Origin: an uncultured Arcobacteraceae bacterium | GTDB lineage: Bacteria; Campylobacterota; Campylobacteria; Campylobacterales; Arcobacteraceae | NCBI GenBank assembly: GCA_964022095.1 | Contig: CAXHZO010000005.1 | Location: 32,001 to 96,000 of the forward strand | DNA: 64,000 nt | Direction of reading: 5' to 3' | Part shown: one piece after another, positions 6,561 through 60,524 of the stretch | Numbering within the stretch: the first letter of the stretch is position 1 | Layout of the letters: each line of letters opens with the position of its first letter | Program-made: the position numbers and the translations under genes | Notes under the pieces: model-generated | What the model saw: only the letters and a program-made list of their open reading frames with translations | Told to the model about the DNA's origin: nothing | Databases searched by the model: none

Positions 6561-6637
<77 letters not shown>

Positions 6638-6642
6638 TTAGA

Positions 6643-42300: not shown

Positions 42301-43059
42301 TTAAAACAGTTCTATTTTATATCCTGAGTTATTTTGATTTACTATTAAGTCTTTATGTATTTTACTTCTAAGTCTAAATAAAACAGACCTAAAAGCAGCA
42401 TATCCAGCTGGTTCATCTTGCCAAATTGCATACTCCATTTGTTCTTGGGATACAAATTGCCCAGCACTTCTACAAAGTAAATCAATAATCTTTTTCTCTT
42501 TAGAAGTTAGTTTTATAGGTTCATCTCCATAATATAAAACTTCTACTTCTTTATCATAAAGATAACCATATTTAAGTTGTATTGTTCTATGATTTTGTTC
42601 TTTATTTAAAGATAATTGATGCTCTAAAGTTTTGTTTATATTTTCAACAGCATCTAGTTTTTTAATTTTTTCATTATCTTCTTTTGCTTTACTAAGAGCC
42701 ACTTCAATAGCAGCATGTAAGCTTTGTTTTTTATATGGTTTGATTATATATCCATATGCTAAAGTTTGAGAAGCTTCTTTTATAGTTTTTATTTCTGAAT
42801 TTGCAGTTAGAAAAACCACAGGTACCTCAGGAATTGAGTTTTTTAACTCTTTTGCAAGCTCAATTCCAGTAGTTGGTCCTTTTAGGTAAATATCCATCAA
42901 AATTAAGTCAGGTTTAGCACCTTTTTCTAATAAAGCTATAGTTTTACATCTATTTGGAGCAACACCACAAACTTTATATCCTAATTCATGTAGTGTTTCT
43001 TTTAGATTTAGTGCAATTATTGATTCATCTTCAACAATTAAAATTTCAATTTTGCTCAT
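42301..43059 (-). CDS. response regulator, receiver plus OmpR/PhoB-type winged-helix DNA-binding domain
   Basis: IVEDE, LMDIYL (phosphoacceptor Asp), LTA, KP; C-terminal IKLTSKEKKIIDLL...IW...LFRLRSKI...GYKI. Confidence 0.92.
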   Translation of the reverse strand: MSKIEILIVEDESIIALNLKETLHELGYKVCGVAPNRCKTIALLEKGAKPDLILMDIYLKGPTTGIELAKELKNSIPEVPVVFLTANSEIKTIKEASQTLAYGYIIKPYKKQSLHAAIEVALSKAKEDNEKIKKLDAVENINKTLEHQLSLNKEQNHRTIQLKYGYLYDKEVEVLYYGDEPIKLTSKEKKIIDLLCRSAGQFVSQEQMEYAIWQDEPAGYAAFRSVLFRLRSKIHKDLIVNQNNSGYKIELF

Positions 43060-43061
43060 TA

Positions 43062-44357
43062 TTATTCTCCCTCATCCTTAGAAAAAATTATATTACACTC
43101 TAAACCATTATTATTCTTAAACTCTATAGTTCCATCTAGTTGATCTTCAATAATTGAGTGAATAAGTTGCATTCCAATTGAATCACTTTTATATAGCGAG
43201 TCAATGTCATCTAATCCATCTCCATTATCACGAATTTTTACGTGGATCTGTTCATCTACTTTTTTCATATGAATACATAATAAATTATCTCTATCTTCTT
43301 TAAATGCATATTTTAAAGCATTTACACAAAGTTCATGTAGAACCATTCCTATTTGTATACATCTATTTGTAGAAAAACTCAAATTATCAATGTGTACATC
43401 TACATTTAATGTTGTGTTTTGTGAAATATATAACTCTTTTATATCATCAACAAGTCTTTTTATATAATTTTTAAGATTTATATATGCTAGGTTTTCACCT
43501 AAATATAAAAACTCATGAACTAAAGCCATAGTATGAATTCTACTTCTACTTTGTTGTAAGATATAAATCATATCTTTATCTTTTGTTCGTCGCTCTTGCA
43601 TATTTAGTAGTGATGATATTATTTCCATATTGTTTTTTACTCTATGATGAATCTCTTTTAGTAATATGTCTTTTTCTTCAACTGACTTTTGTAATTCTTG
43701 ATTCATTTTAGTGATTTTTGTTCTGTATTCTTGTCTTTGTGTCATATCTCTTGAAAAAGCACAAATATATTCATTTCCATTATGTGTAAAACCATGACCT
43801 GAAACTTCCACAGGAAAAATTGTTCCATCCTTTCTAATTTGTGTAGTTTCTAATCTCCAATTTTTATGATGGTAGATATTGTACATACACTCTTTTGCAG
43901 TCTCCCTATCAAAATTTGGGTCCATATCTTCTAAATACATATGATTTAAAAACTCATCTTTACTTCTTCCTATCATCTTACAAGCAGCTTCATTTACATA
44001 AATGAATTTTGCATCTAATGTAAACCAGTATATAGCATCAATAGAGTTGTTCAATGCAAACTCATAAGGAACAAGCCTTTCTTTATCTTTATCTTTTAAC
44101 TCTTTGTATGAACCCTCAATTCTTGAAACAACTTTTTGCATATGATTTAACATGATAAATAAAATTATTCCAGTTACTATTAAAAATATAATTCCAAAAG
44201 TGAAAGGCCCTTCTTGGCTTAGTGAATGATACTTTGAAAACTCACTTACAAGTCTATCAATAAACAAAATACCAACAGCTCCTATTAGTATATATGTTAA
44301 TGAAAACTTTGTTGGTATGGATTTATTATTTAAAATATAGTTCTTAACTCTTCCCAT
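43062..44357 (-). CDS. membrane PAS-domain sensor histidine kinase, HisKA_2 family
   Basis: Two TMs, PAS (YVNEAACKMIG, RKDGTIFPVEV), EIHHRVKNN H-box, ELCVNALKYAF, DNGDG, G box; ATG at 44357 preferred over GTG at 44411. Confidence 0.92.
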   Translation of the reverse strand: MGRVKNYILNNKSIPTKFSLTYILIGAVGILFIDRLVSEFSKYHSLSQEGPFTFGIIFLIVTGIILFIMLNHMQKVVSRIEGSYKELKDKDKERLVPYEFALNNSIDAIYWFTLDAKFIYVNEAACKMIGRSKDEFLNHMYLEDMDPNFDRETAKECMYNIYHHKNWRLETTQIRKDGTIFPVEVSGHGFTHNGNEYICAFSRDMTQRQEYRTKITKMNQELQKSVEEKDILLKEIHHRVKNNMEIISSLLNMQERRTKDKDMIYILQQSRSRIHTMALVHEFLYLGENLAYINLKNYIKRLVDDIKELYISQNTTLNVDVHIDNLSFSTNRCIQIGMVLHELCVNALKYAFKEDRDNLLCIHMKKVDEQIHVKIRDNGDGLDDIDSLYKSDSIGMQLIHSIIEDQLDGTIEFKNNNGLECNIIFSKDEGE

Positions 44358-44419
44358 TTTACTGCTCTTATTATAGATTTGAAAAATTATATCATAAATA
44401 AAAATATTCACTAATAACT

Positions 44420-44755: not shown

Positions 44756-45751
44756 ATGTCTTTAGATATAAAAAGTATAGATATTAAGCCAAAAAGAGAA
44801 ACTTTTGGACACGTGGAAAGAAGAATTGGTGAAGGTAAGATGGCTTCAAGATATGAAGAGGCAACATTTGATATTCAGCCAGTTGCAAACTTTCATTATA
44901 GACCTTATGCAAATCCAGAGTTTGAGTTATATGATCAAAATAAAACTAGCATTAAAATGGAAGACTGGTATAAGTTTTTAGACCCAAGACAATACCACTA
45001 TGCTTCATATGTAACAGCAAGAGCAAAACAACAAGAAGTTGCAGAACAAAACTTTGTTTTTGTAGAAAAAAGAAATATGTTAGATGTAATGCCAGGAGAT
45101 ATAAAACAAGAAATCTTGAATTATGTTTTACCACTTAGACACTATGAGTGGGGAGCAAATATGAATAACCTTCAATTATGTTCAGAAGGATATGGTGCAG
45201 CTATTACAAATGCTTATATGTTCCATGCAGAAGATAGATTAGGTAATGCTCAATATCTTACAAGAATTGGATTATTACTTAGTGAAAATGAACCTGCTGT
45301 TTTAGATAATGCAAAAGATAAATGGTTAAATGATGAAGCATGGCAGCCACTTAGAAAAGCAATGGAAGATAGCTTTGTTTTACAAGATTGGTTTGAGCTT
45401 CATATAGCGCAAAATGTGATTTTCGATGGTTTTATTCATCCTTTAGTATTTGATAAGTACGAGCAAGAACTAAACCAAAGAGGTGGAACTGCTCAAACTA
45501 TGATGACAGAGTTTATCACATCTTGGAATGATGAATCTGCTAGATGGATTGATATGACAGTTAAAGTAGCAGCTTTAGAACGTGATGAAAATAAAGAGTT
45601 ATTAAATCAATGGTGTAAAAAGTATATTGATATTGCAAGTAATGCAGCCCTAGCAATTGCTAAAAATATAGTTAATAATCCAGAAGAAACAGTTAATAAC
45701 ATACAAGAGCAATTAGTGGCAAGATTAAATAAAAATGGTTTAAACCTATAG
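44756..45751 (+). CDS. dmpL: phenol hydroxylase beta subunit P1
   Basis: ASRYEEAT.DIQP..NFHYRP, DPRQY.Y, PLRH..WGANMNN, DWFEL. Confidence 0.94.
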   Translation: MSLDIKSIDIKPKRETFGHVERRIGEGKMASRYEEATFDIQPVANFHYRPYANPEFELYDQNKTSIKMEDWYKFLDPRQYHYASYVTARAKQQEVAEQNFVFVEKRNMLDVMPGDIKQEILNYVLPLRHYEWGANMNNLQLCSEGYGAAITNAYMFHAEDRLGNAQYLTRIGLLLSENEPAVLDNAKDKWLNDEAWQPLRKAMEDSFVLQDWFELHIAQNVIFDGFIHPLVFDKYEQELNQRGGTAQTMMTEFITSWNDESARWIDMTVKVAALERDENKELLNQWCKKYIDIASNAALAIAKNIVNNPEETVNNIQEQLVARLNKNGLNL

Positions 45752-45759
45752 GAGAAAGA

Positions 45760-46029
45760 ATGTCAAAGGTATTTTTAGCACTTCAAGCAGTAGATGAAAC
45801 AAGAGCTATTATTGAAGCTATACAAGAAGATAATGAAAATGTTGAGGTTGAACCACAGCCTGCCATGGTAAAAATCTCAGCTGAGAAAAAAATGGTAATA
45901 AATGCTCAAACTGTATCTGACAAATTAGGTAGAGATTGGGATCCACAAGAGTTACAGTTAGTTTTAATTTCACTAGCTGGAAATGTTGATGAAGATTATG
46001 ACCACTTTACAATTTATTGGGAAAATTAG
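45760..46029 (+). CDS. dmpM: phenol hydroxylase regulatory subunit P2 (MmoB/DmpM)
   Basis: R.IIEAI.EDN, QPAMVKI, LISLAGNVDED. Confidence 0.95.
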   Translation: MSKVFLALQAVDETRAIIEAIQEDNENVEVEPQPAMVKISAEKKMVINAQTVSDKLGRDWDPQELQLVLISLAGNVDEDYDHFTIYWEN

Positions 46030-46040
46030 GAGAAAATATT

Positions 46041-47561: not shown

Positions 47562-47923
47562 TGGCAATTGTAAGTAAAGGTGAATATCCAGTAATTATGA
47601 TGGATAGTGTAGATAAGTTTCATGGTAACCAATTAGTATATGTAGGTTGGGATAAACATAAGTTAATCAATTCAGCGATGGCTTTTCCTTTACCACCACA
47701 AATGCCTTTTAAGGCATTAGTGCATGAAGTAATGCCAGGTTGTTATAAAGATCATCCAGATTTTGAAAAAGTTGTATGGGATGATTCTGTTATTTGGAGA
47801 TTAAACGGTGAAGAGTTTACTCCTGATTTTGAAAAATCTCTTGAAGATAATGGAATTGATCATAAGTCATTAGTTAGATTTGAAACACCAAATCTAACAG
47901 GAATTAACGGAGTAGGAATGTGA
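47561..47923 (+). CDS. dmpO: phenol hydroxylase gamma subunit P4
   Basis: YVGWDKH, PP.MPF, HPDF, PDFEKSL.DNGI.HKS. Confidence 0.94.
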   Translation: MAIVSKGEYPVIMMDSVDKFHGNQLVYVGWDKHKLINSAMAFPLPPQMPFKALVHEVMPGCYKDHPDFEKVVWDDSVIWRLNGEEFTPDFEKSLEDNGIDHKSLVRFETPNLTGINGVGM

Positions 47924-48978
47924 GTTATCAAGTAGAAATAGAACCAACAGGAGATGTAGTAGAAGTTCAAGATGGTCAAACTATTCTTGATGCTGCATTA
48001 AGACAGGGGGTATATATTCCCCATGCGTGCTCTCATGGTTTATGTGGTACTTGTAAGGTAGAGATATTAGAAGGTGAAGTTGACTATGGTGCAGCTTCTC
48101 CTTTTGCCCTTATGGATATGGAAAAAGATGAGGGAAAATGTCTTGCTTGTACTGCTACACCAATGGAAGATTGTGCTATAGAAGCTGATGTTGATGAAGA
48201 TCCAGATGCTAAATCAATACCTGTAAAAGATTTTATGGGAACAGTTGTTGAGGTGAAGGATTTAACACCTAGAATAAAAGGTATTTTTATAGAATTAGAT
48301 GAAGAGATTGAGTTTCAAGCAGGTCAATATGTACAATATCATGTACCAGGATTTGAAGAACCAAGAGCATTTTCTTTATGTAACTCTTCAAATGATAAAA
48401 AAATTGTAGAGTTAAATATTTCTTTAGTTCCAGATGGAGAAGCAACTCCATGGATTCATAAAAATGTAAAAGTTGGTGCAAGAAGAAAAGTATCAGGACC
48501 TTATGGAAGATTTTTTGTAAGAGAATCTGCTCAAAAACCTATGATTTTCTTTGCAGGTGGTTCAGGTCTTTCAAGTCCAAAATCTATGATTTTAGAGCAG
48601 CTTGAAAATGGAAGTAAACAAGAAATAACACTTTTTCATGGTGCTAGAAATGAAGAAGAGTTATATTATGCAGATTTATTTAGAGACTTAGAGCAAAAGC
48701 ATGAGAACTTTACATATGTACCTGTTTTATCCGATGAAGATACTCCTTCTTGGGAAGGGAAAAAAGGTTTTGTAAATGATGCTGCAAAAGAAGTTTTTGA
48801 AAATGACTTCTCTGGAAAAAAAGCATATCTTTGTGGACCTCCACCTATGATAGATGCTTGTATTACAACATTAATGAGAGGAAGACTTTACGAAAAAGAT
48901 ATTTATACTGAAAAGTTCTTCTCAAAAGCTGACTTAAATGCTGAAAATCAGCGTTCCCCTTTATTTAAATCAATTTAA
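47920..48978 (+). CDS. dmpP: phenol hydroxylase reductase P5 (2Fe-2S/FAD/NADH)
   Basis: CSHGLCGTC...LAC, RAFS, AGGSGLS, YLCGPP, RSPLFK. Confidence 0.96.
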   Translation: MSYQVEIEPTGDVVEVQDGQTILDAALRQGVYIPHACSHGLCGTCKVEILEGEVDYGAASPFALMDMEKDEGKCLACTATPMEDCAIEADVDEDPDAKSIPVKDFMGTVVEVKDLTPRIKGIFIELDEEIEFQAGQYVQYHVPGFEEPRAFSLCNSSNDKKIVELNISLVPDGEATPWIHKNVKVGARRKVSGPYGRFFVRESAQKPMIFFAGGSGLSSPKSMILEQLENGSKQEITLFHGARNEEELYYADLFRDLEQKHENFTYVPVLSDEDTPSWEGKKGFVNDAAKEVFENDFSGKKAYLCGPPPMIDACITTLMRGRLYEKDIYTEKFFSKADLNAENQRSPLFKSI

Positions 48979-48999
48979 AATTTTTAAAAAGTAGTTTTT

Positions 49000-49031
49000 G
49001 CGATTTTTCTGCGAAACTATTTCTGTAAAGT
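49000..49031 (+). promoter_or_regulatory. GCGAT-box internal promoter of the meta-cleavage genes
   Basis: GCGAT-TTTTCT-GCGAA-ACTATTTCTG-TAAAGT. Confidence 0.72.
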
Positions 49032-49076
49032 TAAAAAGTCAAAAAGCTATGACTTTTAAATAAAAAAGGGGATGTT

Positions 49077-49397
49077 TTGAAATATGAAATCTTCGTAAAA
49101 GATAAAGACAAAACTAAAACTTGTCTTGAATCTAAACATCTTATGGATGGTTTATATGTATATGATAATCTAGTTCCAAAGGGTTGTCATAATGGTGCCT
49201 GTGGACTTTGTAAGGTTAAAGTTCATAGAGGAGACTACAAAAAATGCAAAATGAATAGAAAACACATCTCATGTGAAGAAGAGAGTGCAGATATTCTTTT
49301 AGCTTGTAAGACATTTCCTAGAAGTGATATGGAAATAGAATTTATACGTAGAGACTTATCTAAAGAAAAATCCCAAGTTTATGTACTTGGTAATTAA
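49077..49397 (+). CDS. dmpQ: XylT/DmpQ-type 2Fe-2S ferredoxin (C23O reactivation)
   Basis: GCHNGACGLCKV, MNRKH, LAC..PRSD; directly before C23O. Confidence 0.88.
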   Translation: MKYEIFVKDKDKTKTCLESKHLMDGLYVYDNLVPKGCHNGACGLCKVKVHRGDYKKCKMNRKHISCEEESADILLACKTFPRSDMEIEFIRRDLSKEKSQVYVLGN

Positions 49398-49414
49398 ATA
49401 ATTAGGAGAAAGTA

Positions 49415-50362
49415 ATGAGCAGTATTATGAGATTAGGTCATGTTGATATTAATGTATTAGATATTAATGAATCAAGAGACTATTATGAAAATATTATGGG
49501 TATGGAAGTTACAAGAGAAGACTCTGATGGAACACTTTATTTAAAGTGCTGGGATGAATGGGATAAATACAGTCTTATTTTAAGACCTAGTGAAGAAGCA
49601 ACATATAATAAGGTTGCGTATAAAGTAGAAAAAGATTCTGATATAGATGATTTTAAAGAAAAAATCGAAAAATATGGAATAAAAACAGAGATTTTAGAAG
49701 CTGGAACTATTCCTGAATGTGGAAGGGTATTAAAGTTTATATCTCCAAGTGAGCATGAATTTAATTTATATGCTGAAAAAACATTTGTAGGTAAAAAAGT
49801 AGGTCACACTAATCCTGCACCTTGGCCAATTGATGGAAAAGGTATCAAAGCTCACTGGATTGATCATATTTTATTAATGACTCAAGGTCCTGAAAAATTA
49901 ATGGAAGCTACTAAGTTCTTTGAAGAAGTATTTGATATGAAATTAGCAGAGCAAGTTTGTGTAGGACCTGAGGGCTCAGTTCAGGCTGCAACATGGTTAA
50001 GTGCTGGAAACACTCCTCATGATTTAGCTTTTGTTGCTGGAGCAGAAACTGGTATGCATCATTTTGCATTTTTCTTAGATGGTTGGAATGATATTTTAAG
50101 ATCAGCAGATGTTATGGCTATGAATAATGTTAAGTTAGATGTTACTCCTCAAAGACATGGTATTACAAGAGGTGAGACTATTTATTTCTTTGACCCATCA
50201 GGACATAGACTTGAGACATTTGCAGGTCTAGGTTATGCAGTTTGTAAAGATATGCCAACAGTTACTTGGACAGAAGATGAACTATGGAGAGGTATTTTCT
50301 ATCATACAGGTCAAGAAAATGGTGCATTTACAACTGCATATACATTATCAGCTTATAAATAA
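49415..50362 (+). CDS. dmpB: catechol 2,3-dioxygenase
   Basis: MRLGHV, YLKCWDEWD, DH, PHDLAF, HHFAF, RHGITRGETIYFFDPSG. Confidence 0.95.
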   Translation: MSSIMRLGHVDINVLDINESRDYYENIMGMEVTREDSDGTLYLKCWDEWDKYSLILRPSEEATYNKVAYKVEKDSDIDDFKEKIEKYGIKTEILEAGTIPECGRVLKFISPSEHEFNLYAEKTFVGKKVGHTNPAPWPIDGKGIKAHWIDHILLMTQGPEKLMEATKFFEEVFDMKLAEQVCVGPEGSVQAATWLSAGNTPHDLAFVAGAETGMHHFAFFLDGWNDILRSADVMAMNNVKLDVTPQRHGITRGETIYFFDPSGHRLETFAGLGYAVCKDMPTVTWTEDELWRGIFYHTGQENGAFTTAYTLSAYK

Positions 50363-50384
50363 AAGAAAAATTTAGGAATTTAAA

Positions 50385-50813
50385 ATGTTGACAAAAACAT
50401 CAAGAGATTTGACAAGTCAAACAGCTTTAAAGCTTTGTGAGTTATCAATTGAAAAGGCTAATGAATTAAATATAAAAATAAATGTAAGTGTTACAGATTC
50501 AAAAGGGATTGAACTTGCATTTATAAGAATGGATGATTCTTTTATTCATTCAAGTCAAATAGCAAAAGATAAGGCTTATACAAGTGCAAGTTTTGGTTTT
50601 AACTCAGATATATGGACTCAAGTTTTCAAAAGTGAACCTCATTTAGAACAAGGTTTTTCTAATAGAGATAGATTAATACCTTTTGGTGGAGGGCTTACTA
50701 TTTTTGAAAATGAAGAAAAAGTTGGAGCCATTGGTGTTTCAGGCGGAACTGAACAAGAAGATATTATTTGCGCGAAGTATGCAATAGAAAGGATAGGATT
50801 AAATAATGAATAA
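50385..50813 (+). CDS. GlcG/HbpS-family haem-binding protein
   Basis: AFIRMD, DKAYTSASFG, GAIGVSGG..QED. Confidence 0.88.
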   Translation: MLTKTSRDLTSQTALKLCELSIEKANELNIKINVSVTDSKGIELAFIRMDDSFIHSSQIAKDKAYTSASFGFNSDIWTQVFKSEPHLEQGFSNRDRLIPFGGGLTIFENEEKVGAIGVSGGTEQEDIICAKYAIERIGLNNE

Positions 50814-52263
50814 AGTACAACACTATATTAACGGACAATTTTTAGATTCATCTTGTGGGGAGTTTTTTGAGAATATCAACCCTATGAATGGTCAAGTATT
50901 ATCTCAAGTAGCCCTAGGACGAGAAGATGAAGTGAATGCAGCAGTTGCAGCAGCTAAAGCAGCTCTTACTGGTGAATGGGGTCAAATGAAATTAAATGAC
51001 AGAATTGCAATGATGTATGAAATTGCTGAGGAAATTGATAGAAGATTTGATGATTTCTTAGAAGCTGAATGTTTAGATACAGGTAAACCTTATTCTATTG
51101 CAAGACATATTGATATCCCAAGAGGTGCTGCAAATTTTAAAGTATTTGCAGACACTATGAAATCTGTTGCAGATGAAGCTTATAGAATGGATACACCTGA
51201 TGGAAAAGTAGCTATGAATTATTCTATGAGAAAACCTAAGGGGGTTATTGGTGTAATTTCTCCATGGAATTTACCATTACTTTTAATGACTTGGAAAGTT
51301 GGTCCTGCAATGGCTTGTGGAAATACAGTAGTTGTGAAACCATCACAAGTTACACCAACAACAACATCTTTACTTGGTGAAGTAATGTCAAAAGTTGGTG
51401 TTCCTTCTGGTGCATATAATGTAGTACAAGGAAAAGGTTCAATTACTGGAAATTTATTAACAGCTCATAAAGATGTAGATGCTTTAACTTTTACAGGTGA
51501 GACAAAAACAGGTGAGATGATTATGAAAGCTTGTTCTCATGGTGTTAGAGATGTATCCTTAGAGCTTGGTGGAAAAAACCCAGCTATTGTTTTTGCTGAT
51601 TGTGATATGGATAAGGCAATTGCTGAGACTACAAGATCGTGTTTTGCTAACTCTGGTCAAGTTTGTTTAGGAACTGAAAGAGTTTATGTTCAAAGAGAAA
51701 TTTTTGATGAATTTGTATCAAAACTAAAAGAGTCAGCTTTAAAACTAAAACTTGGAATTCATAATGATGAATCAGTTGATATGGGGCCAGTAGTTAGTGC
51801 TGCTCATAGAGATAAAGTATTAGAGTTTTATGACATAGCTAAAAAAGAGGGTGCAAATGTAATTTTAGGTGGAGGTGCTCCTAAAATGGAAGGTGATTTA
51901 GCAAATGGATTCTTTGTTGAACCTACTATTTGGACTGGTCTTCCTGAAGATGCAACAGTTGTAAAACAAGAAGTATTTGGACCTTGTTGTCATATTGCAC
52001 CTTTTGATAGTGAAGAAGAAGTTATTAAAATGGCTAATGATACAGATTATGGACTAGCATCTACAATATTTACAGAAAATTTAGATAAGGCTCATAGAGT
52101 AGCTTCACAAATTGACTCAGGAATTGTATGGATTAATTCATGGTTCTTAAGAGATTTAAGAACACCATTTGGTGGAATGAAAGGTTCTGGTATCGGAAGA
52201 GAGGGTGGTCACCACTCATTAGAGTTCTATACTGAACTTAAAAACGTATGTATAAAAATGTAA
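50806..52263 (+). CDS. dmpC: 2-hydroxymuconic semialdehyde dehydrogenase
   Basis: DIPRGAANF, PWNLPLLLMTWK, ELGGKN, GQVCLGTER, WFLRDLRTPFGG. Confidence 0.96.
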   Translation: MNKVQHYINGQFLDSSCGEFFENINPMNGQVLSQVALGREDEVNAAVAAAKAALTGEWGQMKLNDRIAMMYEIAEEIDRRFDDFLEAECLDTGKPYSIARHIDIPRGAANFKVFADTMKSVADEAYRMDTPDGKVAMNYSMRKPKGVIGVISPWNLPLLLMTWKVGPAMACGNTVVVKPSQVTPTTTSLLGEVMSKVGVPSGAYNVVQGKGSITGNLLTAHKDVDALTFTGETKTGEMIMKACSHGVRDVSLELGGKNPAIVFADCDMDKAIAETTRSCFANSGQVCLGTERVYVQREIFDEFVSKLKESALKLKLGIHNDESVDMGPVVSAAHRDKVLEFYDIAKKEGANVILGGGAPKMEGDLANGFFVEPTIWTGLPEDATVVKQEVFGPCCHIAPFDSEEEVIKMANDTDYGLASTIFTENLDKAHRVASQIDSGIVWINSWFLRDLRTPFGGMKGSGIGREGGHHSLEFYTELKNVCIKM

Positions 52264-52272
52264 GGGTGTAAT

Positions 52273-53067
52273 ATGTCAATGACTCAAGAAAAAATTGAAA
52301 AGTATGGAAATGAATTGTATGAGGCTTTAAAAGGAAACTATACAATTGAGCCTATTTCAAATAGAGAACCTGATTCTACAATTGAAGATGCTTATGCTAT
52401 TCAACATCACTTTTTAAAAAGAAGAATGGAAGATGATGGAAGTAAAATTATTGGTAAAAAAATTGGTGTTACATCAAAGGTTGTTATGGACATGTTAGGT
52501 GTTCATCAACCTGATTTTGGTTACCTTTTATCAGATATGATTTACTCTGATGGTGATGTAATAAATGTAACAAGTGGAATGATTCAGCCAAAAGCAGAGG
52601 GTGAAATAGCCTTTGTTTTAAAAGAAGATTTATGTGGACCAGGAGTTACAGCTGCTGATGTTATTAAAGCAACAAAATTTGTAATGCCTTGTTTTGAAAT
52701 AGTTGATTCAAGAATCAAAGATTGGAAAATTAAAATCCAAGATACAGTTGCTGATAACGCTTCATGTGGATATATGGTATTTGGAGGACAAAGTGTATCT
52801 CCTTTAGATGTTGATTTAACAACTTGTGGAATAACTTTAGAGAGAAATGGTGAGTTATTACATACAGGAGCAGGTGCAGCAGCTCTTGGTAGTCCTGTAA
52901 ATGCAGTAGTTTGGCTTGCAAATAAACTTGGAGAGTTTGGTGTATCGCTAAAAGCAGGTGAGGTTATTTTATCAGGGGCTTTATGTGCAATGGTAGATAT
53001 AAAACCAGGTGATAATATGACTGCAAGTATTGGTGGCGTTGGTTCTGCCTCAATCAGATTTGAATAA
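52273..53067 (+). CDS. dmpE: 2-oxopent-4-enoate hydratase
   Basis: GKKIGVTS, QPDFG, PKAEGE, DTVADNAS. Confidence 0.93.
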   Translation: MSMTQEKIEKYGNELYEALKGNYTIEPISNREPDSTIEDAYAIQHHFLKRRMEDDGSKIIGKKIGVTSKVVMDMLGVHQPDFGYLLSDMIYSDGDVINVTSGMIQPKAEGEIAFVLKEDLCGPGVTAADVIKATKFVMPCFEIVDSRIKDWKIKIQDTVADNASCGYMVFGGQSVSPLDVDLTTCGITLERNGELLHTGAGAAALGSPVNAVVWLANKLGEFGVSLKAGEVILSGALCAMVDIKPGDNMTASIGGVGSASIRFE

Positions 53068-53079
53068 AAGGTAAATACA

Positions 53080-53964
53080 ATGGAAAAAATAAATTGTGCA
53101 TTAATTGGGTCTGGAAATATTGGAACAGACCTAATGTATAAACTAAAAAGAAGTGAAATATTAAATCCTTTATGGATGGTTGGTATTGACCCTGAGTCTG
53201 ATGGTTTATTAAGAGCTAAAGAAGATGGTATGAAAACAACAGCCGAAGGTGTTGATGGATTACTTCCTTTTATTAAAGAAGATGGTGTAAAGATTGCATT
53301 TGATGCAACATCAGCTTATGTTCATGGTGAAAATAATAAAAAGTTAGCGGAACTTGGAGTTCAAGTTATTGATTTAACTCCTGCTGCAATAGGACCATTT
53401 TGTGTGCCATCAGTTAATATGGAAGAGCTACTTGCTCAAAATACTCAAAATGTAAATATGGTTACTTGTGGTGGGCAAGCTACTATTCCTATGATTGCCG
53501 CTGTATCAAAAGTTCAGGAAGTTGAATATGCAGAAATTGTAGCAACAGCAGCTTCTAAGTCAGCAGGTCCAGGAACTCGTGCTAATATTGATGAGTTTAC
53601 TGAAACTACAAAACTTGGAATAGAGCAAGTAGGTGGTGCTAAAAAAGGTAAAGCAATTATTATTTTAAATCCTGCAGAACCACCTTTAATGATGAGAGAT
53701 ACAATTCATTGTTTAACAAGTGAAAAACCTGATGAAGAAGCTATTACTAAATCAATCCATGAAATGGTTGAAACTATGCAAGAGTTTATTCCAGGGTATG
53801 TGTTAAAAAATGGACCAGTTTTTGATGGTAATAAAATCTCTATTTGGTTAGAAATTGAAGGTTTGGGGGATTATTTGCCTAAGTATGCAGGTAACCTAGA
53901 CATTATTACAGCAGCAGCAACAAATATTGCAGAACAAATGGCTAAAAAGATTAAAGGAGCATAA
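53080..53964 (+). CDS. dmpF: acylating acetaldehyde dehydrogenase
   Basis: [39 protein letters not shown]. Confidence 0.96.
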
Positions 53965-53965
53965 G

Positions 53966-54994
53966 ATGGATTTACAAGGTAAAAAAATAAAAATTCATGA
54001 TATGTCTTTAAGAGATGGAATGCACTCAATTAGACATCAATTTTCACTTGAAGAGATGACAAATATGTCAACAGCAATGGATAAAGCAGGTGTTCCTTTT
54101 ATTGAAGTTACTCATGGAGATGGACTTGGTGGTTCATCACTTAACTATGGATGGGGAAGACATACTGATGAAGAGTGGTTAGATGCAGTAGTGCCAAATA
54201 TGACACAAGCTAAAATCTCAGCTCTTTTACTTCCAGGAATCGGTATTGTAAAAGATTTAGAAAAAGCTGTTGATCATGGTATTTCTATGGTTAGAGTAGC
54301 AACTCATTGTACGGAAGCTGATTGTTCAGCCCAACATATAAAAGCTGCTAAATCAATGGGACTTGATACAGTTGGATTTTTAATGATGGCTCATATGGTT
54401 GATGAAAAAAGATTAGTTGAGGAAGCTTCTAAAATGGTTTCTTATGGAGCTACTACTATTTATGCAACTGATTCAGCTGGCTACTTACTTCCTGATATGG
54501 TAAGTTCTAGAATTAAAGCATTAAAAGCAGAGTTTGGTGATGAAATTGAACTTGGTTTCCATGGGCACAATAATTTATCAATGGGTGTTGCAAACTCTTT
54601 AGCTGCTATTGAAGCAGGTGCTACACGAATTGATGCTTCACTTGCAGGTTTTGGAGCAGGTTCTGGAAACACTGCAACTGAAGTATTAGTTGCTGTTTGT
54701 AATAGAATGGGTGTTGATACAGGTGTTAATCTTGAAGCTATTGAAGATGCAGCTGAGGATATTGCACTTCCTATTATGGGTAAACCTACAAGAATCTCAA
54801 GGGATTCTATTACTTTAGGTTATGCAGGTGTTTATTCATCATTTTTACTATTTGCTAGACGAGCAGAAGAAAAGTATGGAATAGATGCAAGATCTTTACT
54901 TGTTGAATTAGGTAGAAGAGGAATGATTGGTGGTCAAGAGGATATGATTGATGATTGTGCTATGGAATTAGCTAAACAAAAAGGATTATTATAA
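53966..54994 (+). CDS. dmpG: 4-hydroxy-2-oxovalerate aldolase
   Basis: [45 protein letters not shown] at 53966 after SD AGGAG. Confidence 0.96.
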
Positions 54995-55782
54995 TGGCAT
55001 TAGATAAAGCAACAATAGAAAAACTTGCAAAGCATTGTGAAGATGCAGAATTGCAAGCTTATGAGATTACAAAAATTACTGATGATTACCCAGAAATGAC
55101 ATATGAAGATGCATATGATATTCAATGGACTGCAAGGGCTGCTAAGGAAGCAAGAGGTCATAAAATAGTTGGTATGAAAATGGGGCTTACTTCACAGGCT
55201 AAAATGAAACAAATGGGAGTTCCAAATCCTTGTTATGGATATCTTGCTGATTACTTTGCATATGGTGATGGGGCAGAAATACCATATGACGAATTAATTC
55301 ATCCAAAAGTTGAAGCTGAAATTGCTTTTGTATTAAAAGATGATTTAAGTGGTCCGGGATGTCATATAGGTGATGTATTAGCTGCTACTGATTTTGTAAT
55401 GCCTGCTGTTGAGATTATTGATTCAAGATATAAGGATTTTAAATTTGATTTAAAATCTGTAATTGCTGATAACTCTTCATCTTCTAGATATGTAAGTGGT
55501 GGTATGGCAAAAAAAGCTAATGAAGTTGATTTAAAAACTTTAGGTGTCGTAATGGAAATAAATGGTGAAGTTGTACAACTTGGAGCAGGAGCTGCAGTTC
55601 TTGGTCATCCAGCAACTGCTATTGCAATGCTTGCAAATATGATGAGTGAACGAGGTGAGGTTTTAAAGGCTGGATCTTATATCTTAAGTGGAGCAATTAC
55701 AGCTGCAACTACTGTTAATAAAGGTGATAATGTAACTGTTAAGTTTCAAGATTTAGGAACTTTATCATTTAAATTTGTATAG
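54994..55782 (+). CDS. dmpH: 4-oxalocrotonate decarboxylase
   Basis: KMGLTS.AKMKQMGV, IHPKVEAE, FKFDLKSVIADN. Confidence 0.94.
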   Translation: MALDKATIEKLAKHCEDAELQAYEITKITDDYPEMTYEDAYDIQWTARAAKEARGHKIVGMKMGLTSQAKMKQMGVPNPCYGYLADYFAYGDGAEIPYDELIHPKVEAEIAFVLKDDLSGPGCHIGDVLAATDFVMPAVEIIDSRYKDFKFDLKSVIADNSSSSRYVSGGMAKKANEVDLKTLGVVMEINGEVVQLGAGAAVLGHPATAIAMLANMMSERGEVLKAGSYILSGAITAATTVNKGDNVTVKFQDLGTLSFKFV

Positions 55783-55790
55783 AAAATAAG

Positions 55791-55937
55791 AGCAACTTAT
55801 TGCTTTTAAAAAATGGGATATTTTAAGGACAACTTGTTGTCCCTTTAGGGTTTGCTTCTTTAAAGATGGCTTTGCCATCTTGTTAAAAGAAGTTAAATAT
55901 GTAAGGTCCCTTAAAAAATGGGACATTTTTTAAGGAG
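55791..55937 (+). repeat. intercistronic cluster of hairpins with a duplicated ~24-bp unit
   Basis: TTAAAAAATGGGA(T/C)ATTTT..AAGGA at 55806-55829 and 55911-55936; palindromes AGCAA/TTGCT, GGACAA/TTGTCC, AAGATGGC/GCCATCTT. Confidence 0.75.
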
Positions 55938-55943
55938 TATATT

Positions 55944-56135
55944 ATGCCAATAGCAACTATAAATATAATCGAAGGCAGATCTGATGAGCAAAAAGAGAAG
56001 CTTATAGAAAAAGTAACTCAAGCAATTCACGAAGCTATAGATGCACCAAAACAAAATGTTAGAGTGATTTTAAATGAAATGCCAAAACAACATTTTGGAA
56101 TAGGTGGAGAAAGTGTAAAAAAGATGGGGCGATAA
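55944..56135 (+). CDS. dmpI: 4-oxalocrotonate tautomerase
   Basis: Catalytic Pro1, EGRS.EQK, VRV, HFGIGG. Confidence 0.95.
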   Translation: MPIATINIIEGRSDEQKEKLIEKVTQAIHEAIDAPKQNVRVILNEMPKQHFGIGGESVKKMGR

Positions 56136-56136
56136 A

Positions 56137-57144
56137 GTGTTAAAATTAAGTGTATTAGACCAATCTCCAATTCATGATGGAAAAGAAGCAAAGCAAGGCT
56201 TATTTGATACTATTGAATTAGCAAAATCTTGTGAAGACTTAGGTTATTATAGATATTTATTAGCAGAACATCATGATACACCTGGCTATGCTTCTTGTGC
56301 CCCTGAGATTATGGTTAGTGCAGTTGCTTCAAATGCTTCAAAAATTAGAGTTGGTAGTGGTGGAGTTATGCTAAATCACTATAGCTCTTTTAAAGTAGCA
56401 GAGACTTTTAATACACTTAATGCTTTATACGATAATAGGATTGATTTAGGTGTAGGAAGAGCTAGTGGCGGAAGTTTTTTAGCTACTAGAGCTTTGCATT
56501 CAAATCAAAGTGATTATTCAAAAAAAGTTTATGAAACAATAAATTATTTAGATAAAACAGTTCCTTTAAATTCTTCATTTAGTGGATTGACTTTATCCCC
56601 AGTTCAAGAAAATAGTACTCCTGTGTATTTACTAGGTTCTAGTAATTCAAGTTCTTCTTTAGCAGGAGTTTTAGGTGCAGGTTTTATCTTAGCACTATTT
56701 ATAGGAACACATGAAAGAAATTCTTCAATAATACAAGAGTATAAAAAAACATTTAATAAAAGTCATAATTTTAAAAAGCCAAAAGCTAGTATTGCAGTTG
56801 CTTGTATTGTTGCAAAGGATAAAGAAGAAGCAAGATATATAGCAAGTACACATACTTATTGGAAGTTACAAGCTTTCAGACAGCCTACAAGGGATGATTT
56901 ACAAAGCCCACAAGCAGTTCAAGAACTAATAAAAGATTTAAGCCTTGAAGATAGACAATATTATGAAGAAACAATGAATACCATGATATTGGGTAATGCA
57001 AAAGAGTGTAAAGAAGAAATAGAGAAATTAGCTTTAGAATATGAAGTTGATGAGGTAATTATTGTGAATGTGACTTATTCTTTTGAGCATAGAAAAAGAT
57101 CATATGAACTTTTAGCAAAAGAGTTTGATTTAAATAAGGAGTAA
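56137..57144 (+). CDS. luciferase-like (LLM) flavin-dependent oxidoreductase
   Basis: LSVLDQSP, AEHH, RVGSGGVML.HYS..KVAE, RIDLGVGRA. Confidence 0.9.
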   Translation: MLKLSVLDQSPIHDGKEAKQGLFDTIELAKSCEDLGYYRYLLAEHHDTPGYASCAPEIMVSAVASNASKIRVGSGGVMLNHYSSFKVAETFNTLNALYDNRIDLGVGRASGGSFLATRALHSNQSDYSKKVYETINYLDKTVPLNSSFSGLTLSPVQENSTPVYLLGSSNSSSSLAGVLGAGFILALFIGTHERNSSIIQEYKKTFNKSHNFKKPKASIAVACIVAKDKEEARYIASTHTYWKLQAFRQPTRDDLQSPQAVQELIKDLSLEDRQYYEETMNTMILGNAKECKEEIEKLALEYEVDEVIIVNVTYSFEHRKRSYELLAKEFDLNKE

Positions 57145-57146
57145 AA

Positions 57147-57965
57147 ATGTCAAATCCAGAAATAGCAAATAGTATTAATACGGGTAATTATAATACTAAC
57201 TATCATGATTTAGGTGAGGGTGAAGTAGTTTTATTTATCCATGGTTCAGGACCAGGGGTTTCAGCCTTTGCAAACTGGAGATTAACAATGCCCCAGCTTG
57301 CAAAAAACTTTAGAGTAATAGCTCCTGATATGGTAGGCTTTGGTTATAGTGATAGACCTAATGATATTACTTATAGTATGGATGTATGGGTAGAGCAAGC
57401 TATTAATTTAATGGATGCTTTAAAAATAGAAGAATTTAATATCGTTGGTAACTCTTTTGGTGGAGGCTTGGCTTTATGTTTAGCTATAAAATATCCAAAT
57501 AGAGTGAATAAAATGGTATTAATGGGTGCAATGGGTGTTGATTTTGAAATAACAGCTGGACTTGATCAAGCATGGGGATATACTCCAAGTATAGAAAACA
57601 TGAAAGCTTTATTAGATACATTTGCATATAGTAGAGAACTAGTAACAGATGATTTAGCAAAAATGAGATATGAAGCTAGTATTAGACCTGGATTTCAAGA
57701 ATCATTTAGTTCAATGTTTCCCGAACCAAGACAAAATAGTGTAAAATCAATGGCAAGTGATGAAAAAGAAATAGCTTCTATTGATAAAGATGTTTTAATT
57801 ATCCATGGTAGAGATGATAAGGTGATTCCTTTTGAAAACTCAATTAGATTGCATAATCTAATAGAAAAGTCACAATTACATGGTTTTGGACAATGTGGAC
57901 ATTGGTCTCAAATAGAACATAAGGATAGATTTAATAAACTACTTGAAGATTTCTTTTTAGAATAG
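57147..57965 (+). CDS. dmpD: 2-hydroxymuconic semialdehyde hydrolase
   Basis: HGSGPGV.A.ANW, GNSFGG, HGRDD, CGHW.QIEH. Confidence 0.93.
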   Translation: MSNPEIANSINTGNYNTNYHDLGEGEVVLFIHGSGPGVSAFANWRLTMPQLAKNFRVIAPDMVGFGYSDRPNDITYSMDVWVEQAINLMDALKIEEFNIVGNSFGGGLALCLAIKYPNRVNKMVLMGAMGVDFEITAGLDQAWGYTPSIENMKALLDTFAYSRELVTDDLAKMRYEASIRPGFQESFSSMFPEPRQNSVKSMASDEKEIASIDKDVLIIHGRDDKVIPFENSIRLHNLIEKSQLHGFGQCGHWSQIEHKDRFNKLLEDFFLE

Positions 57966-57973
57966 GAGTAGAT

Positions 57974-58912
57974 ATGAACTTTTTAATTTTAGGTACAGGT
58001 GGAATAGGCGCATTTTACGGAGCAAGATTATTAAGTTCATCAAATAAAGTTACATTTGTCGCAAGGAGTTTGCACTTAGAAGCTATAAGAAAAAATGGCT
58101 TACAAGTGCAACATCCTGATTTTTCCTTCTCTCAAAAAGTAGATGTATCACAACTACAAGATATAGACTTCACTTCTTTAAATATTGATGTAATAATTCT
58201 AACTACAAAATCAAATACAACTAAAATAATAGCAAAAGAGCTTTCTTTTAAACTAGATACATTAAAAGACAAACCATATATTTTATCTTTACAAAATGGT
58301 GTTGAGAATGAGAAATTTTTATGTGAATATTTTCAAAAAGATAAAATAATAGGTGGACTAACTAGAAAAATAGGTGCTCATATTATAAAACCCTCTTTTA
58401 TAGAAGCCACAGGTAAAGTAGAAACTCTAATAGGTGCAATTTCCCAAACTAAAGAAAACACAGCTTTTTTAAAGAAGTTAAATAAAAGTATAAATGAAGC
58501 TGGTATTTTATGTGAAGTTGTTGATGATATAAATAAAGAGCTTTGGAAAAAACTTATTATAAACAATGGAGTAAATGCTATTTGTGCTTTACTCAAAATT
58601 AAAACTGGTGTTTTAATGAATAATGAAAAACTTTCATCTTTAGTTTATAGTCTAATGAAAGAGACTCAAAGTGCTGCAAAAGCTTGTAGTATAGAAATTA
58701 CTAACAATGAACTAAGTCAAATGTATGAGTTAATTAAAAATTTTGACTCAATTAAACCCTCAATGCTAGTTGATAGAGAGTTTAAAAGAGAATTAGAAAT
58801 AGATGAAATCTGTAATGTAGTAATAAACTATAATAAAATGCAAAATATAGATAGCCCTTATACTAAATCAATCTCTTATTTACTTGATTTTGTGTATAAA
58901 AATGAAAAATAA
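57974..58912 (+). CDS. ketopantoate reductase (PanE/ApbA)-family protein, copy 2
   Basis: GTGGIG, LQNGV, WKKLIINNGVNAICALL, KPSMLVD, ELEID. Confidence 0.88.
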   Translation: MNFLILGTGGIGAFYGARLLSSSNKVTFVARSLHLEAIRKNGLQVQHPDFSFSQKVDVSQLQDIDFTSLNIDVIILTTKSNTTKIIAKELSFKLDTLKDKPYILSLQNGVENEKFLCEYFQKDKIIGGLTRKIGAHIIKPSFIEATGKVETLIGAISQTKENTAFLKKLNKSINEAGILCEVVDDINKELWKKLIINNGVNAICALLKIKTGVLMNNEKLSSLVYSLMKETQSAAKACSIEITNNELSQMYELIKNFDSIKPSMLVDREFKRELEIDEICNVVINYNKMQNIDSPYTKSISYLLDFVYKNEK

Positions 58913-58920
58913 AACTATTT

Positions 58921-58952
58921 GCGATTAATCTGCGATAAGTTTTTATTATTAT
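58921..58952 (+). promoter_or_regulatory. GCGAT-box promoter upstream of an ORF-free structured segment
   Basis: GCGAT-TAATCT-GCGAT-AAGTTTTTAT-TATTAT. Confidence 0.72.
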
Positions 58953-58958
58953 TACCTT

Positions 58959-59146
58959 TGAAATAGGTGCAAGTGATATATTTATTTTTGAAGTTGTAGT
59001 ACCTATTATGTTTTTTGCTTTTAAACTTATAAATGCTTTCTTTTTATCACTTACAACTTCAAAGCGACTTATATGAAGTTTCTCCTTTCATAAAAAAATG
59101 ATTTAGACATAAATACGGCATTTTATATGCCGTATGCCCTTATTTT
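58959..59146 (+). ncRNA. candidate sRNA (or long structured leader) with anti-SD loop
   Basis: Own motif promoter, no credible ORF, several inverted repeats, loop GTTTCTCCT, 3' hairpin ATACGGCAT/ATGCCGTAT; ends approximate. Confidence 0.5.
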
Positions 59147-59160
59147 AACTTATAAAAAGT

Positions 59161-59192
59161 GCGATAATTTTGCGATTTAATTTAATTAAAAT
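59161..59192 (+). promoter_or_regulatory. GCGAT-box promoter of porin gene
   Basis: GCGAT-AATTTT-GCGAT-TTAATTTAAT-TAAAAT; first 16 bp identical to the dmpK site. Confidence 0.8.
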
Positions 59193-59267
59193 CTTTAATG
59201 TAGAGTACCAACTATATATTGCGCGTGTATGGTAGTCTAGAAAATTTCGAAATCTTGGAGAGATAAA

Positions 59268-60434
59268 ATGAAAAAAATTACAAAATTAAGTATGGCTGTA
59301 TGTTTACTACTTAGTAGTTCAGTTTTTGCTGATACTTTAGAAGAAGCATTTTCTAATTCAAAAGTAAAGGGTGAATTAAAAGCACAATACTTTGATAAGC
59401 AAAGTCCATTAGATGGTAAAAACGATAATATTTTTGTTATAGGTGGAAATATAAATATCGTAACGGGTTCTTTTTATGGATTAAATGCAGGAGTTACATT
59501 TCAAGCTTCACATGTAGTAGATAGATCTATTGAGGCAACAAATGATTTTGCTAACACAATGGATGCATCAGGTGCTGTAATGTCTGAATCATATTTAGCA
59601 TATACTTTAAATAATACAACATTAAAAGTTGGTAGACAGTATATTACAACTCCTTTAGTTGCAGGATCTGGGTCTAGAATGATTAAAGAGTCTTTTGAAG
59701 GTGTTACTTTAACAAATACAGATTTAGCTGATACAACTATAGTTGCTGCATATGCAAATAAGTTCCAAGGAAGAACAGATGGTGCTGAAAACCCAGGTGA
59801 GTTTGATAAGTATGAAGATGGAGCATATACTTTATATCTGAAAAACAACTCTATTGAAAACTTGACACTACAAGGTCAGTATTTAGATGTAGATGGAAGT
59901 ACTGCAAATACTGATAAAAATGCTTTATATATAGATGGTGTTTATGATGCTAGTATTGCAAAAGTTTCACTACAAGTAATTGATTCTACAAATGATAGTA
60001 ATGCTAAGTCTGATGGTAGATTATATGGGGCTAAAGTTAGTGGAAATATAGGAATGGTTAATTTAACAGGATTATATACAAGTACTACTGATGATGGTGA
60101 TGTATTTGTTGGTGCTGGAAATGGTGCTGATTCTGGTTATACAGCTTTACCAATTCATGGTGGAAGTGTAACATATAAAGCAAACACAGATACAATGGTT
60201 GCTGTTGCAGCTACACAATTAGCAGGGGCTACTGTTGTTGCGTATATAGGACAAGTAAAATCACCTGATAATAATAACTTAGGTGGTTCAGATAAGATTG
60301 ATGCTTATGGTGGATTTGTACAGTATGCATTTAATAAAAATTTCTCAACAAAAGTTATGTATGAAAACGCTTCATTTAGCGATACTTTAAAAGATTCAAA
60401 TGCTTTAAGAGTTTATACTTCATATAAATTTTAG
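59268..60434 (+). CDS. outer-membrane porin (Campylobacterota OprD/MOMP-like)
   Basis: Signal peptide, ADTLEEAF..SKVKGE, LKVGRQYI.TPL, C-terminal RVYTSYKF. Confidence 0.88.
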   Translation: MKKITKLSMAVCLLLSSSVFADTLEEAFSNSKVKGELKAQYFDKQSPLDGKNDNIFVIGGNINIVTGSFYGLNAGVTFQASHVVDRSIEATNDFANTMDASGAVMSESYLAYTLNNTTLKVGRQYITTPLVAGSGSRMIKESFEGVTLTNTDLADTTIVAAYANKFQGRTDGAENPGEFDKYEDGAYTLYLKNNSIENLTLQGQYLDVDGSTANTDKNALYIDGVYDASIAKVSLQVIDSTNDSNAKSDGRLYGAKVSGNIGMVNLTGLYTSTTDDGDVFVGAGNGADSGYTALPIHGGSVTYKANTDTMVAVAATQLAGATVVAYIGQVKSPDNNNLGGSDKIDAYGGFVQYAFNKNFSTKVMYENASFSDTLKDSNALRVYTSYKF

Positions 60435-60463
60435 TAATTTAGTATAGTATAAAAGCTGTTTTT

Positions 60464-60495
60464 AAGGGTTCAAGTATATACTTGAACCCTTTTTT
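60464..60495 (+). terminator. rho-independent terminator after porin
   Basis: AAGGGTTCAAGTATATACTTGAACCCTT perfect palindrome followed by T run. Confidence 0.85.
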
Positions 60496-60524
60496 AATTT
60501 AAATTTTTTTCAAAAGAAGTTATT

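Follow-up and report, generated by a model that had tools for sequence, protein, structure and literature searches.

In enterobacteria, small RNAs controlled by OmpR-type regulators are linked to porins, as in the case of MicF, which is encoded next to ompC, and of OmrA/OmrB. Promoters activated by regulators of the PhoB/OmpR type carry two direct repeats with an 11-bp period, which replace the -35 element. Small RNAs are also said to arise by exaptation of decayed genes, a route reportedly described by Jose, Gardner and Barquist in 2019. In the Campylobacterota, PMC8687705 describes small RNAs with C/U-rich loops, CJnc190 of Campylobacter jejuni and RepG of Helicobacter pylori, and raises the possibility that a degenerate toxin-antitoxin locus gave rise to NikS. 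Here we analyse positions 58920-59146 (+ strand) of a 64-kb stretch of DNA from an uncultured Arcobacteraceae bacterium (the whole stretch is referred to as the window). This segment, the unit, lies between a phenol degradation cluster and an OprD-family porin gene. With roughly even confidence, we read it as a structured RNA that would be driven by a response regulator, derived from a pseudogene and kept by selection.

The unit shares with MicF and OmrA/OmrB the location of a putative small RNA gene beside a porin gene, with the same two-component regulator predicted to drive both. It differs from them in belonging to another phylum and to a lineage without Hfq, in having no sequence relation to them, and in being arranged with the porin in same-strand tandem rather than divergently. 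Like CJnc190 and RepG, it is a putative stand-alone non-coding unit of an Hfq-less lineage, and the mode of action proposed for it resembles theirs; in contrast to them, it comprises about 190 nt with two interleaved helices and appears to originate from a coding gene, and neither its sequence nor Rfam relates it to either. This origin fits the exaptation route: the sequence of the non-coding unit follows, in collinear order, the 5' part of a protein gene of which relatives have intact copies. The difference is that the parts retained in the unit are two helices that pre-existed in the coding region of the presumed parent.

Conservation, promoter and 3' end of the unit

A scan of the porin alignment against species-representative genomes returned 55 loci. 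In five of them (L001 to L005), all from Arcobacteraceae, a unit composed of a box, a -10 hexamer, about 190 nt without a conserved open reading frame (ORF), and a hairpin with a T tract is also found 5' of the orthologous porin; together with the window, these make up the six homologues, of which L005 is cut at its 5' end by a contig edge. The spacer can be aligned over its whole length in L001 (83%), L004 (81%) and L003 (73%), and L002 and L005, both metagenome-assembled Poseidonibacter genomes, carry the unit with greater divergence. Box 1, at the head of the unit, and a -10 hexamer (TATTAT, TATAAT or TAAAAT) 10 nt away from it are kept in all five loci that reach so far (the window and L001 to L004). 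The hairpin and T tract, represented by four different sequences, are found on the + strand just 5' of box 2 in all six homologues, and the porin's own box and -10 hexamer, 3' of the hairpin, are complete in all six as well. The distance between boxes 1 and 2 is 240, 233, 215, 220 and about 390 nt across the loci. The unit accompanies the porin irrespective of whether an intact ApbA/PanE-type reductase gene precedes it (window, L001 and L002) or not (L003 and L004). Box 1, its exactly spaced -10 hexamer and the terminator-like hairpin persist, although identity at 4-fold degenerate sites in the neighbouring genes is only 0.36-0.78; the identity of the stretch itself between the window and L001, L004 and L003 is 0.85, 0.80 and 0.62, respectively. 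Beyond the ApbA matches described below, a covariance model revealed no further members in the other 47 of the 55 loci.

The original prediction, made from the letters of the window, described the unit as a candidate small RNA gene, and its sequences and coordinates were all confirmed in the window (Table 1). The GCGAT-box promoter that it placed at the start of the unit, pointing inward, is supported by both enrichment and constant spacing. At a threshold of no more than two mismatches, TGCGAT-N5-TGCGAT occurs at five sites in the window (42294-, 44419+, 48999+, 58920+ and 59160+), as compared with a shuffle mean of 1.04, and none of 100 shuffles reached five. All five boxes are followed by a TAnnnT -10-like hexamer exactly 10 nt past the second repeat. 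The PhoB/OmpR-type layout, with repeats 11 bp apart, placed 10 nt before a -10 hexamer and lacking a -35 element, is therefore seen at each of the five window boxes, and it recurs at box 1 of all four other loci that reach it. Predicted promoters of the box 1 type are also found at the dmp, ferredoxin, SDR and porin genes. A plain sigma-70 scan detected no promoter on the + strand of the unit region, which is expected when an activator site takes over from the -35 element. The predicted start of the transcript is near 58959. The likeness to pho-box promoters lies in direct repeats that substitute for the -35 element 10 nt before the -10 hexamer and in a winged-helix regulator encoded nearby. 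In contrast, the TGCGAT repeat unit is not the Escherichia coli pho box, and the presumed signal here is phenol. The presumed binder of the direct repeat is the OmpR/PhoB-type response regulator of the island, which is encoded together with its partner kinase upstream of the phenol cluster and in divergent orientation.

Similar boxes were seen outside the six homologues. Porin orthologues with 38-56% identity (L006, L007, L008, L013, L014 and L022) are preceded by a single TGCGAT-like direct repeat, about 90-170 nt 5' of the porin start, and have no relic of the kind described below, suggesting that the pairing of box and porin is older and wider than the phenol island. At L013 11200-11457 (- strand), a further box (TGCGATAAATTTACGAA), followed after 10 nt by TATTAT, comes directly after the last gene of a luciferase-like/abhydrolase/ApbA/Mem_trans operon. 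This box faces a stretch of about 240 nt with a hydrophobic ORF of 27 aa, at the end of which lies a hairpin shared with a convergent porin gene.

Apart from the flanking genes, four ORFs of at least 20 aa overlap positions 58900-59270, namely two of 22 aa on the + strand inside the unit, one of 20 aa on the - strand, and one of 21 aa at 59170-59235, beyond the unit. A small protein was rejected as the product: both 22-aa ORFs lack a Shine-Dalgarno sequence (there is no GGAG on the + strand), one has no start codon in L001, and a stop truncates the other in L004. None of the homologues has a conserved ORF, in line with the original proposal that the unit contains no credible ORF. The 9-bp hairpin predicted before the porin promoter is also present; the terminator scan gave two sites as against 0.1 expected, both of them this hairpin read on either strand. 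The T tract lies nearer to the stem in L002, L003 and L005 than in the window, where GCCC intervenes. The + strand RNA of the unit folds with a z-score of -3.24, and the hairpin forms independently in the minimum-energy fold. A repeat or mobile element was rejected as well, as blastn of the spacer against the window matched only the box at 44419 and short chance words. The Rfam/Infernal check suggested in the original prediction gave no match to any known family: with Rfam 15, the only hits at the gathering cut-off in the window are seven tRNAs, and the best match in 58880-59300 has an E value of 0.31 and 22.2 bits, as compared with a cut-off of 49.9. The unit is outside any curated RNA family.

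Interleaved helices and the ApbA/PanE-type gene

Three interleaving helices had been proposed, of which A and C are kept by compensatory changes and helix B is not conserved, being weakened in L001 and absent in L003 and L002. Helix A consists of eight Watson-Crick pairs and one G.U pair, so its arms are not fully complementary. The 5' arm of helix C abuts the 3' arm of helix A (58998/58999) and, as the arms interleave with no linker, the topology is that of an H-type pseudoknot. Helices A and C are each supported by covariation. RNAalifold run on the four close copies predicted helix A alone. Helix B and an alternative helix (58957-65/59056-64) were set aside, being restricted to the closest relatives.

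To assess covariation, A and C were treated as a pseudoknot in a MAFFT alignment of all six sequences, with part of L003 misaligned. Pairing is seen in 86.5% of the 104 cells, and both partners have changed in 7 of the 19 pairs (4 of 8 pairs in helix A and 3 of 11 in helix C by the tool count). None of 500 shuffles reached 86.5% paired cells or seven both-sided pairs, and sliding the partners by 1-3 columns left 36-54% of the cells paired, with 0-2 both-sided pairs. With a manual register, for which the helix positions in L002 and L003 were picked by eye for complementarity, a choice that favours structure, 42 of 45 cells are paired in helix A and 66 of 78 in helix C, and both-sided changes are seen in 6 of 9 and 6 of 13 pairs, respectively. 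Helix A, for example, reads AGGTGC/GTACCT in the window, AGGTGA/TCGCCT in L003 and CTGGATGC/GCATCCAG in L002, and helix C reads TTTGAAG/CTTCAAA in the window, GTTGAAG/CTTCAAC in L003 and CTGAAG/CTTCAG in L005. The check for covariation in homologous islands, proposed in the original prediction, thus supports A and C across the six homologues. Lineage-specific deletions took sequence between the arms and never the arms themselves. The arms have diverged yet still pair, which argues for selection on RNA structure, plausibly in the form of an H-type pseudoknot or of two alternative folds. As for the strand, eight cells of the helices are G.U wobbles when read on the + strand, and two are A.C cells, which would become such wobbles in a - strand RNA. 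A minus-strand RNA folds better (z of -5.03 versus -3.24) and was rejected, as these wobbles favour the + strand by 8 to 2 and the promoter and the T tracts (in L002, L003 and L005) are on the + strand.

Besides the six copies, the core covariance model (R1) matched L013 13120-13311 (38 bits, E of 1e-4) and L014 15029-15220 (E of 0.0018), in both cases within the first 200 nt of intact ORFs of 313-320 aa that encode ApbA/PanE-type proteins. A sequence-only profile (nhmmer, alignment A4) found the same places in L013 and L014 with E values of 0.0015 and 0.0046. The copy in L002, the least-deleted relic, is collinear with nt 1-330 of the L013 gene (score 129.5, z of 5.9, 0 of 200 shuffles), with collinear blocks that start at the ApbA start codon, and its first two blocks are still separated by some 85-100 nt that have been deleted from the window type. 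The same relic gave a z of 0.1 against its own neighbouring intact ApbA gene and of -0.4 against that of the window, as compared with 5.9 for the L013 gene, which indicates that the intact gene of the window is not the parent of the relic. When 308 background windows, each of 957 nt and drawn from five sources, were scored, the top two proved to be minus-strand windows that overlap ApbA in L013 and in L014, with strand and overlap derived from converted printed offsets.

Several details agree with this assignment. The 5' arm of helix C together with the 3' arm of helix A corresponds to the NGLKLQHPKF codons of the presumed parent gene, and the pyrimidine runs at nt 181 and 303 of the L013 gene recur in order at 59036 and 59079, the C/U run at 59079-59089 being TTTTCCTTTC of nt 303 plus one C. 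In L003 and L004, the relic directly follows the abhydrolase gene, the syntenic slot that is occupied by ApbA in L013; the upstream sequence in L014 resembles that in L013. The reading frame is destroyed: the longest start-to-stop ORFs of the relics on the + strand have 21-37 aa, stops are found in all three frames in four of the six relics, and five of the six have 2 to 12 stops per frame. The exceptions are L001, with one stop-free frame, and the truncated L005. Collinear similarity is seen directly in L002 and extends to the window-type copies by transitivity; as a window-type relic alone gives no significant similarity, the link to ApbA runs through L002 and L005. On the basis of transitivity and synteny, it is quite likely that the unit of the window derives from an ApbA/PanE-type gene.

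Both helices pre-exist within the first 250 coding nt of the ApbA genes in L013 (12367-13323, - strand) and L014 (14294-15232, - strand). They comprise 14 bp (AATTTTGGGTGCTG/CAGCACCCAAAATT) and 9 bp (TTGAAGTTG/CAACTTCAA), are interleaved, and have energies of -22.6 and -13.8 kcal/mol, as compared with -6.8 to -16.7 and -4.8 to -8.9 kcal/mol in five other ApbA genes. The 45 nt around the middle arms are identical in L013 and L014, synonymous sites included. These ApbA genes may carry an mRNA structure inside the coding region.

Table 1. Features of the unit and its surroundings (window coordinates)
Feature	Position	Strand	Basis or conservation
OmpR/PhoB-type response regulator (receiver + Trans_reg_C)	42301..43059	-	Pfam
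PAS + HisKA_2 histidine kinase, partner of the regulator	43062..44411	-	Pfam
Intact ApbA/PanE-type reductase, last gene 5' of the unit, not the parent of the relic	57974..58912	+	Pfam
Box 1, TGCGAT-N5-TGCGAT, 11-bp period, sequence TGCGATTAATCTGCGAT	58920..58936	+	box scan, homologues
-10-like hexamer TATTAT, 10 nt 3' of box 1	58947..58952	+	spacing
Helix A, 5' arm AATAGGTGC, corresponding to ILGAG (GxGxxG) codons	58962..58970	+	conserved
Helix B, arms AAGTGATA / TATCACTT	58971..58978 / 59045..59052	+	not conserved
Helix C, 5' arm TTTGAAGTTGTA, corresponding to NGLKLQ codons	58987..58998	+	conserved
Helix A, 3' arm GTACCTATT, corresponding to QHPKF codons	58999..59007	+	conserved
TTTTGCTTTTAA, best conserved single-stranded stretch	59013..59024	+	exact in window, L001, L002, L004, L005; diverged in L003
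Pyrimidine run CTTTCTTTTT, first ten bases of run CTTTCTTTTTT (L013 gene nt 181)	59036..59045	+	L013 comparison
Helix C, 3' arm TACAACTTCAAA, corresponding to KSTST codons	59052..59063	+	conserved
Hairpin TATGAA (59072-77) / TTCATA (59087-92), loop GTTTCTCCT (59078-86)	59072..59092	+	stem not conserved
Terminator-like 9-bp hairpin, 4 G-C pairs, followed by GCCC and TTATTTT	59113..59135	+	terminator scan
Box 2 (59160-59176) and -10 hexamer TAAAAT (59187-59192), porin's own promoter	59160..59192	+	box scan, spacing
OprD-family porin, gene travelling with the unit	59268..60434	+	Pfam

The pyrimidine-rich loop and its putative targets

The original prediction also held that the unit exposes an anti-Shine-Dalgarno loop complementary to ribosome-binding sites of the phenol genes. 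The loop did not hold up as a conserved element: in the region of its 5' arm (59064-59077), none of 14 columns is invariant. Five of the six relics contain CUCC, in one or the other of two positions (the window average is 0.27 per 190 nt); it is missing in L004 and displaced in L002 and L005. CUCC is absent from the corresponding segments of L013, and L014 has CTCC elsewhere. In the window, the loop corresponds to AGTTTTCCTTTCAT at nt 303 of the presumed parent gene (SFPFI codons), converted to AGTTTCTCCTTTCAT by one inserted C. A conserved, displayed C/U loop as in RepG and CJnc190 is therefore not seen in the six homologues, in contrast to those RNAs; the likeness is that the pyrimidine-rich UUUCUCCUUUC of the unit could cover a G-rich ribosome-binding site.

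With respect to targets, the three complementary ribosome-binding sites that had been listed, at 45750, 46028 and 49404, are real; AGGAGAAA is not enriched in the window, occurring five times as against 3.96 expected, with 37 of 100 shuffles reaching five. Ranking 72 start regions by duplex energy with the loop region brought up strong Shine-Dalgarno sites of any kind, not regulon genes, and the complement of the conserved TTTTGCTTTTAAAC was not found at gene starts in the six loci. In contrast to the porin-linked enterobacterial RNAs, pairing between the unit and the porin start is no better than that of shuffled sequences: in RNAduplex comparisons of the whole RNA at the six loci, which ignore accessibility and are a poor tool for target search, it was equalled by 109, 117, 59, 173, 131 and 29 of 200 shuffles. 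No target comparable to those of CJnc190 and RepG is supported by these searches. A putative non-coding + strand unit with its own predicted promoter and hairpin is supported as originally described and is conserved in six loci, and the proposed targeting of ribosome-binding sites found no support in these comparisons.

The phenol island and alternative readings of the unit

The phenol/meta-cleavage cluster (44756-58912, + strand) encodes a multicomponent phenol hydroxylase, a ferredoxin, catechol 2,3-dioxygenase and the lower pathway, followed by a luciferase-like monooxygenase, an alpha/beta hydrolase and the ApbA/PanE-type reductase. A second ApbA/PanE-type paralogue (38778-39728), with 47% identity to the L013 protein, is encoded outside the cluster and has no upstream box. 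The 354-nt spacer between the dmpH-like and luciferase-like genes (55783-56136) is 83% identical to L001 and L004, which exceeds the identity of 4-fold sites (0.44-0.78 in the L001/L004 comparisons), and it has no box. A cluster of seven tRNA genes lies at 6007-6716 on the + strand. The porin shares 93% identity with that of Arcobacter sp. YIC-464. Between box 2 and the ATG of the porin, L001, L004 and L003 are 92-94% identical to the window, although the porin protein is only 64-68% identical in L004 and L003. The 5' untranslated region of the porin (59197-59267) contains a hairpin (TAGAGTACCA/TGGTAGTCTA) and a motif (TTTCGAAATCT) that recur in diverged form in L002 and L005, and the mRNA of the porin may thus have a conserved element in its leader. 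The spacer between the porin and EamA genes (60435-60524) holds a strong intrinsic terminator, AAGGGTTCAAG-TATATA-CTTGAACCCTTTTTT, and is 96-98% identical in L001 and L003, the flanking proteins being only 62-68% identical (93% for the L001 porin).

In the reading that we prefer, the unit is a non-coding transcription unit that would have formed from the decayed 5' third of an ApbA/PanE-type gene. The OmpR-type regulator of the island would switch on the box 1 promoter along with those of the phenol genes and the porin. Transcription would mostly end at the terminator-like hairpin, so that the RNA would be about 190 nt long. Decay would have removed the coding frame and the segments between the helices, while helices A and C would have been retained by compensatory substitutions; the pyrimidine-rich single strands UUUCUCCUUUC and GCUUUCUUUUU could pair with G-rich ribosome-binding sites. 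If so, its most probable role is that of a small regulatory RNA. A more specific version, which we regard as speculative and rather doubtful, is that of a small RNA caught at birth, in which two interleaved helices of the ApbA mRNA outlived their gene, kept or gained a promoter of the two-component regulon and a terminator, and acquired CUCC twice independently, yielding a phenol-responsive, pseudoknotted regulator in an Hfq-less phylum. In the lineage of the window, CUCC would have come from the single base inserted into the SFPFI codons, and in L002 and L005 it would have been gained at the second site.

Several observations weigh against the preferred reading. The covariation comes from only six sequences, representing about four independent lineages, and part of its manual count depends on the registers chosen by eye. 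In AT-rich DNA, 36-54% of the slid pairs form anyway, and some of the compensatory changes (G-C to A-T) are in line with mutation bias. Overall constraint is weak: identity between the window and L003 falls within the range of the 4-fold sites (0.36-0.71 in the L003 comparisons), and the relic is the least conserved non-coding stretch nearby (0.92-0.94 from box 2 to the ATG and 0.88-0.98 in the porin-EamA spacer). Termination in the window may be leaky, given the GCCC between stem and T tract, and the unconserved stem of the loop and the lack of CUCC in L004, noted above, are further points against it. As to the origin, the window relic alone compared with ApbA gave a z of 0.7, a result equalled by 50 of 200 shuffles and, in the background comparison, by 65 of 132 windows. 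A profile of six ApbA genes retrieved only the L002 relic (E of 0.011), and tblastn of the relics with ApbA proteins gave nothing below an E value of 0.008 and no convincing proof at the protein level.

A less probable alternative is that the unit is a functionless pseudogene remnant. In that case, box 1 would be a second regulator site or an upstream promoter (P1) for the porin, the hairpin would terminate the long operon that runs from dmp to the abhydrolase gene (or to ApbA), and the helices would simply be inherited from the parent gene. The evidence for an ApbA origin serves this explanation equally, and so does the presence of both helices in the intact genes of L013 and L014, together with the low conservation of the relic, which relative to L003 does no better than 4-fold sites. 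In addition, an operon terminator is needed where the hairpin sits, and distant porin orthologues manage with a single box and no relic. Against this alternative are arms that differ among the relics and from the L013 gene and still pair, with both-sided changes under the manual register as well as in the tool count, and deletions that removed the sequence between the arms and spared the arms. A mere binding site would not need a -10 hexamer exactly 10 nt past box 1 in five of five loci, and the variable spacing of boxes 1 and 2 means that helical phasing for looping is not kept.

We consider it improbable that the unit is a long structured leader of the porin mRNA, in which transcripts from box 1 would pass a conditional terminator and the folds of helices A, B and C would decide on read-through. 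The unit is on the same strand as the porin, adjoins it and is always linked to it, a T tract 4 nt off the stem makes read-through in the window plausible, and interleaved helices permit alternative folds. Against this, the porin has its own box and -10 promoter after the hairpin in all six loci, the hairpin folds independently of the rest, and neither the distance nor the sequence between helix C and the hairpin is conserved; apart from its own 3' arm, no segment complementary to the 5' arm of the terminator was found when read by eye. Still less credible, in our view, is a genuine small RNA unrelated to any gene, its likeness to ApbA being due to chance in AT-rich DNA. The window-type copies taken alone are not significantly similar to ApbA and the tblastn result agrees with this, but chance would have to explain the score of the L002 relic, unmatched in 200 shuffles, the ApbA overlap of the two top background windows (as derived from printed offsets), the agreement of covariance model and sequence profile, which in two genomes both pick out one and the same 5' portion of the ORF, the collinear blocks that begin at the start codon, and the position of the relic in the syntenic ApbA slot in L003 and L004.

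No regulatory RNA of Arcobacter was described among the matches listed in a literature search, and the available part of PMC6429828 contains nothing on this locus. If the RNA is made and active, it would rank with the first regulatory RNAs reported from the Arcobacteraceae. If the proposed origin is also true, it would show with unusual clarity how the 5' end of a dead enzyme gene can be recruited as a regulatory RNA, the parent gene being intact in relatives. If the unit is only a wreck, it illustrates that a promoter, a terminator, a favourable fold z-score, an anti-Shine-Dalgarno loop and apparent covariation can all sit on a pseudogene fragment. Whichever reading of the unit holds, the TGCGAT direct-repeat promoters define a testable two-component regulon that comprises phenol catabolism and the porin.

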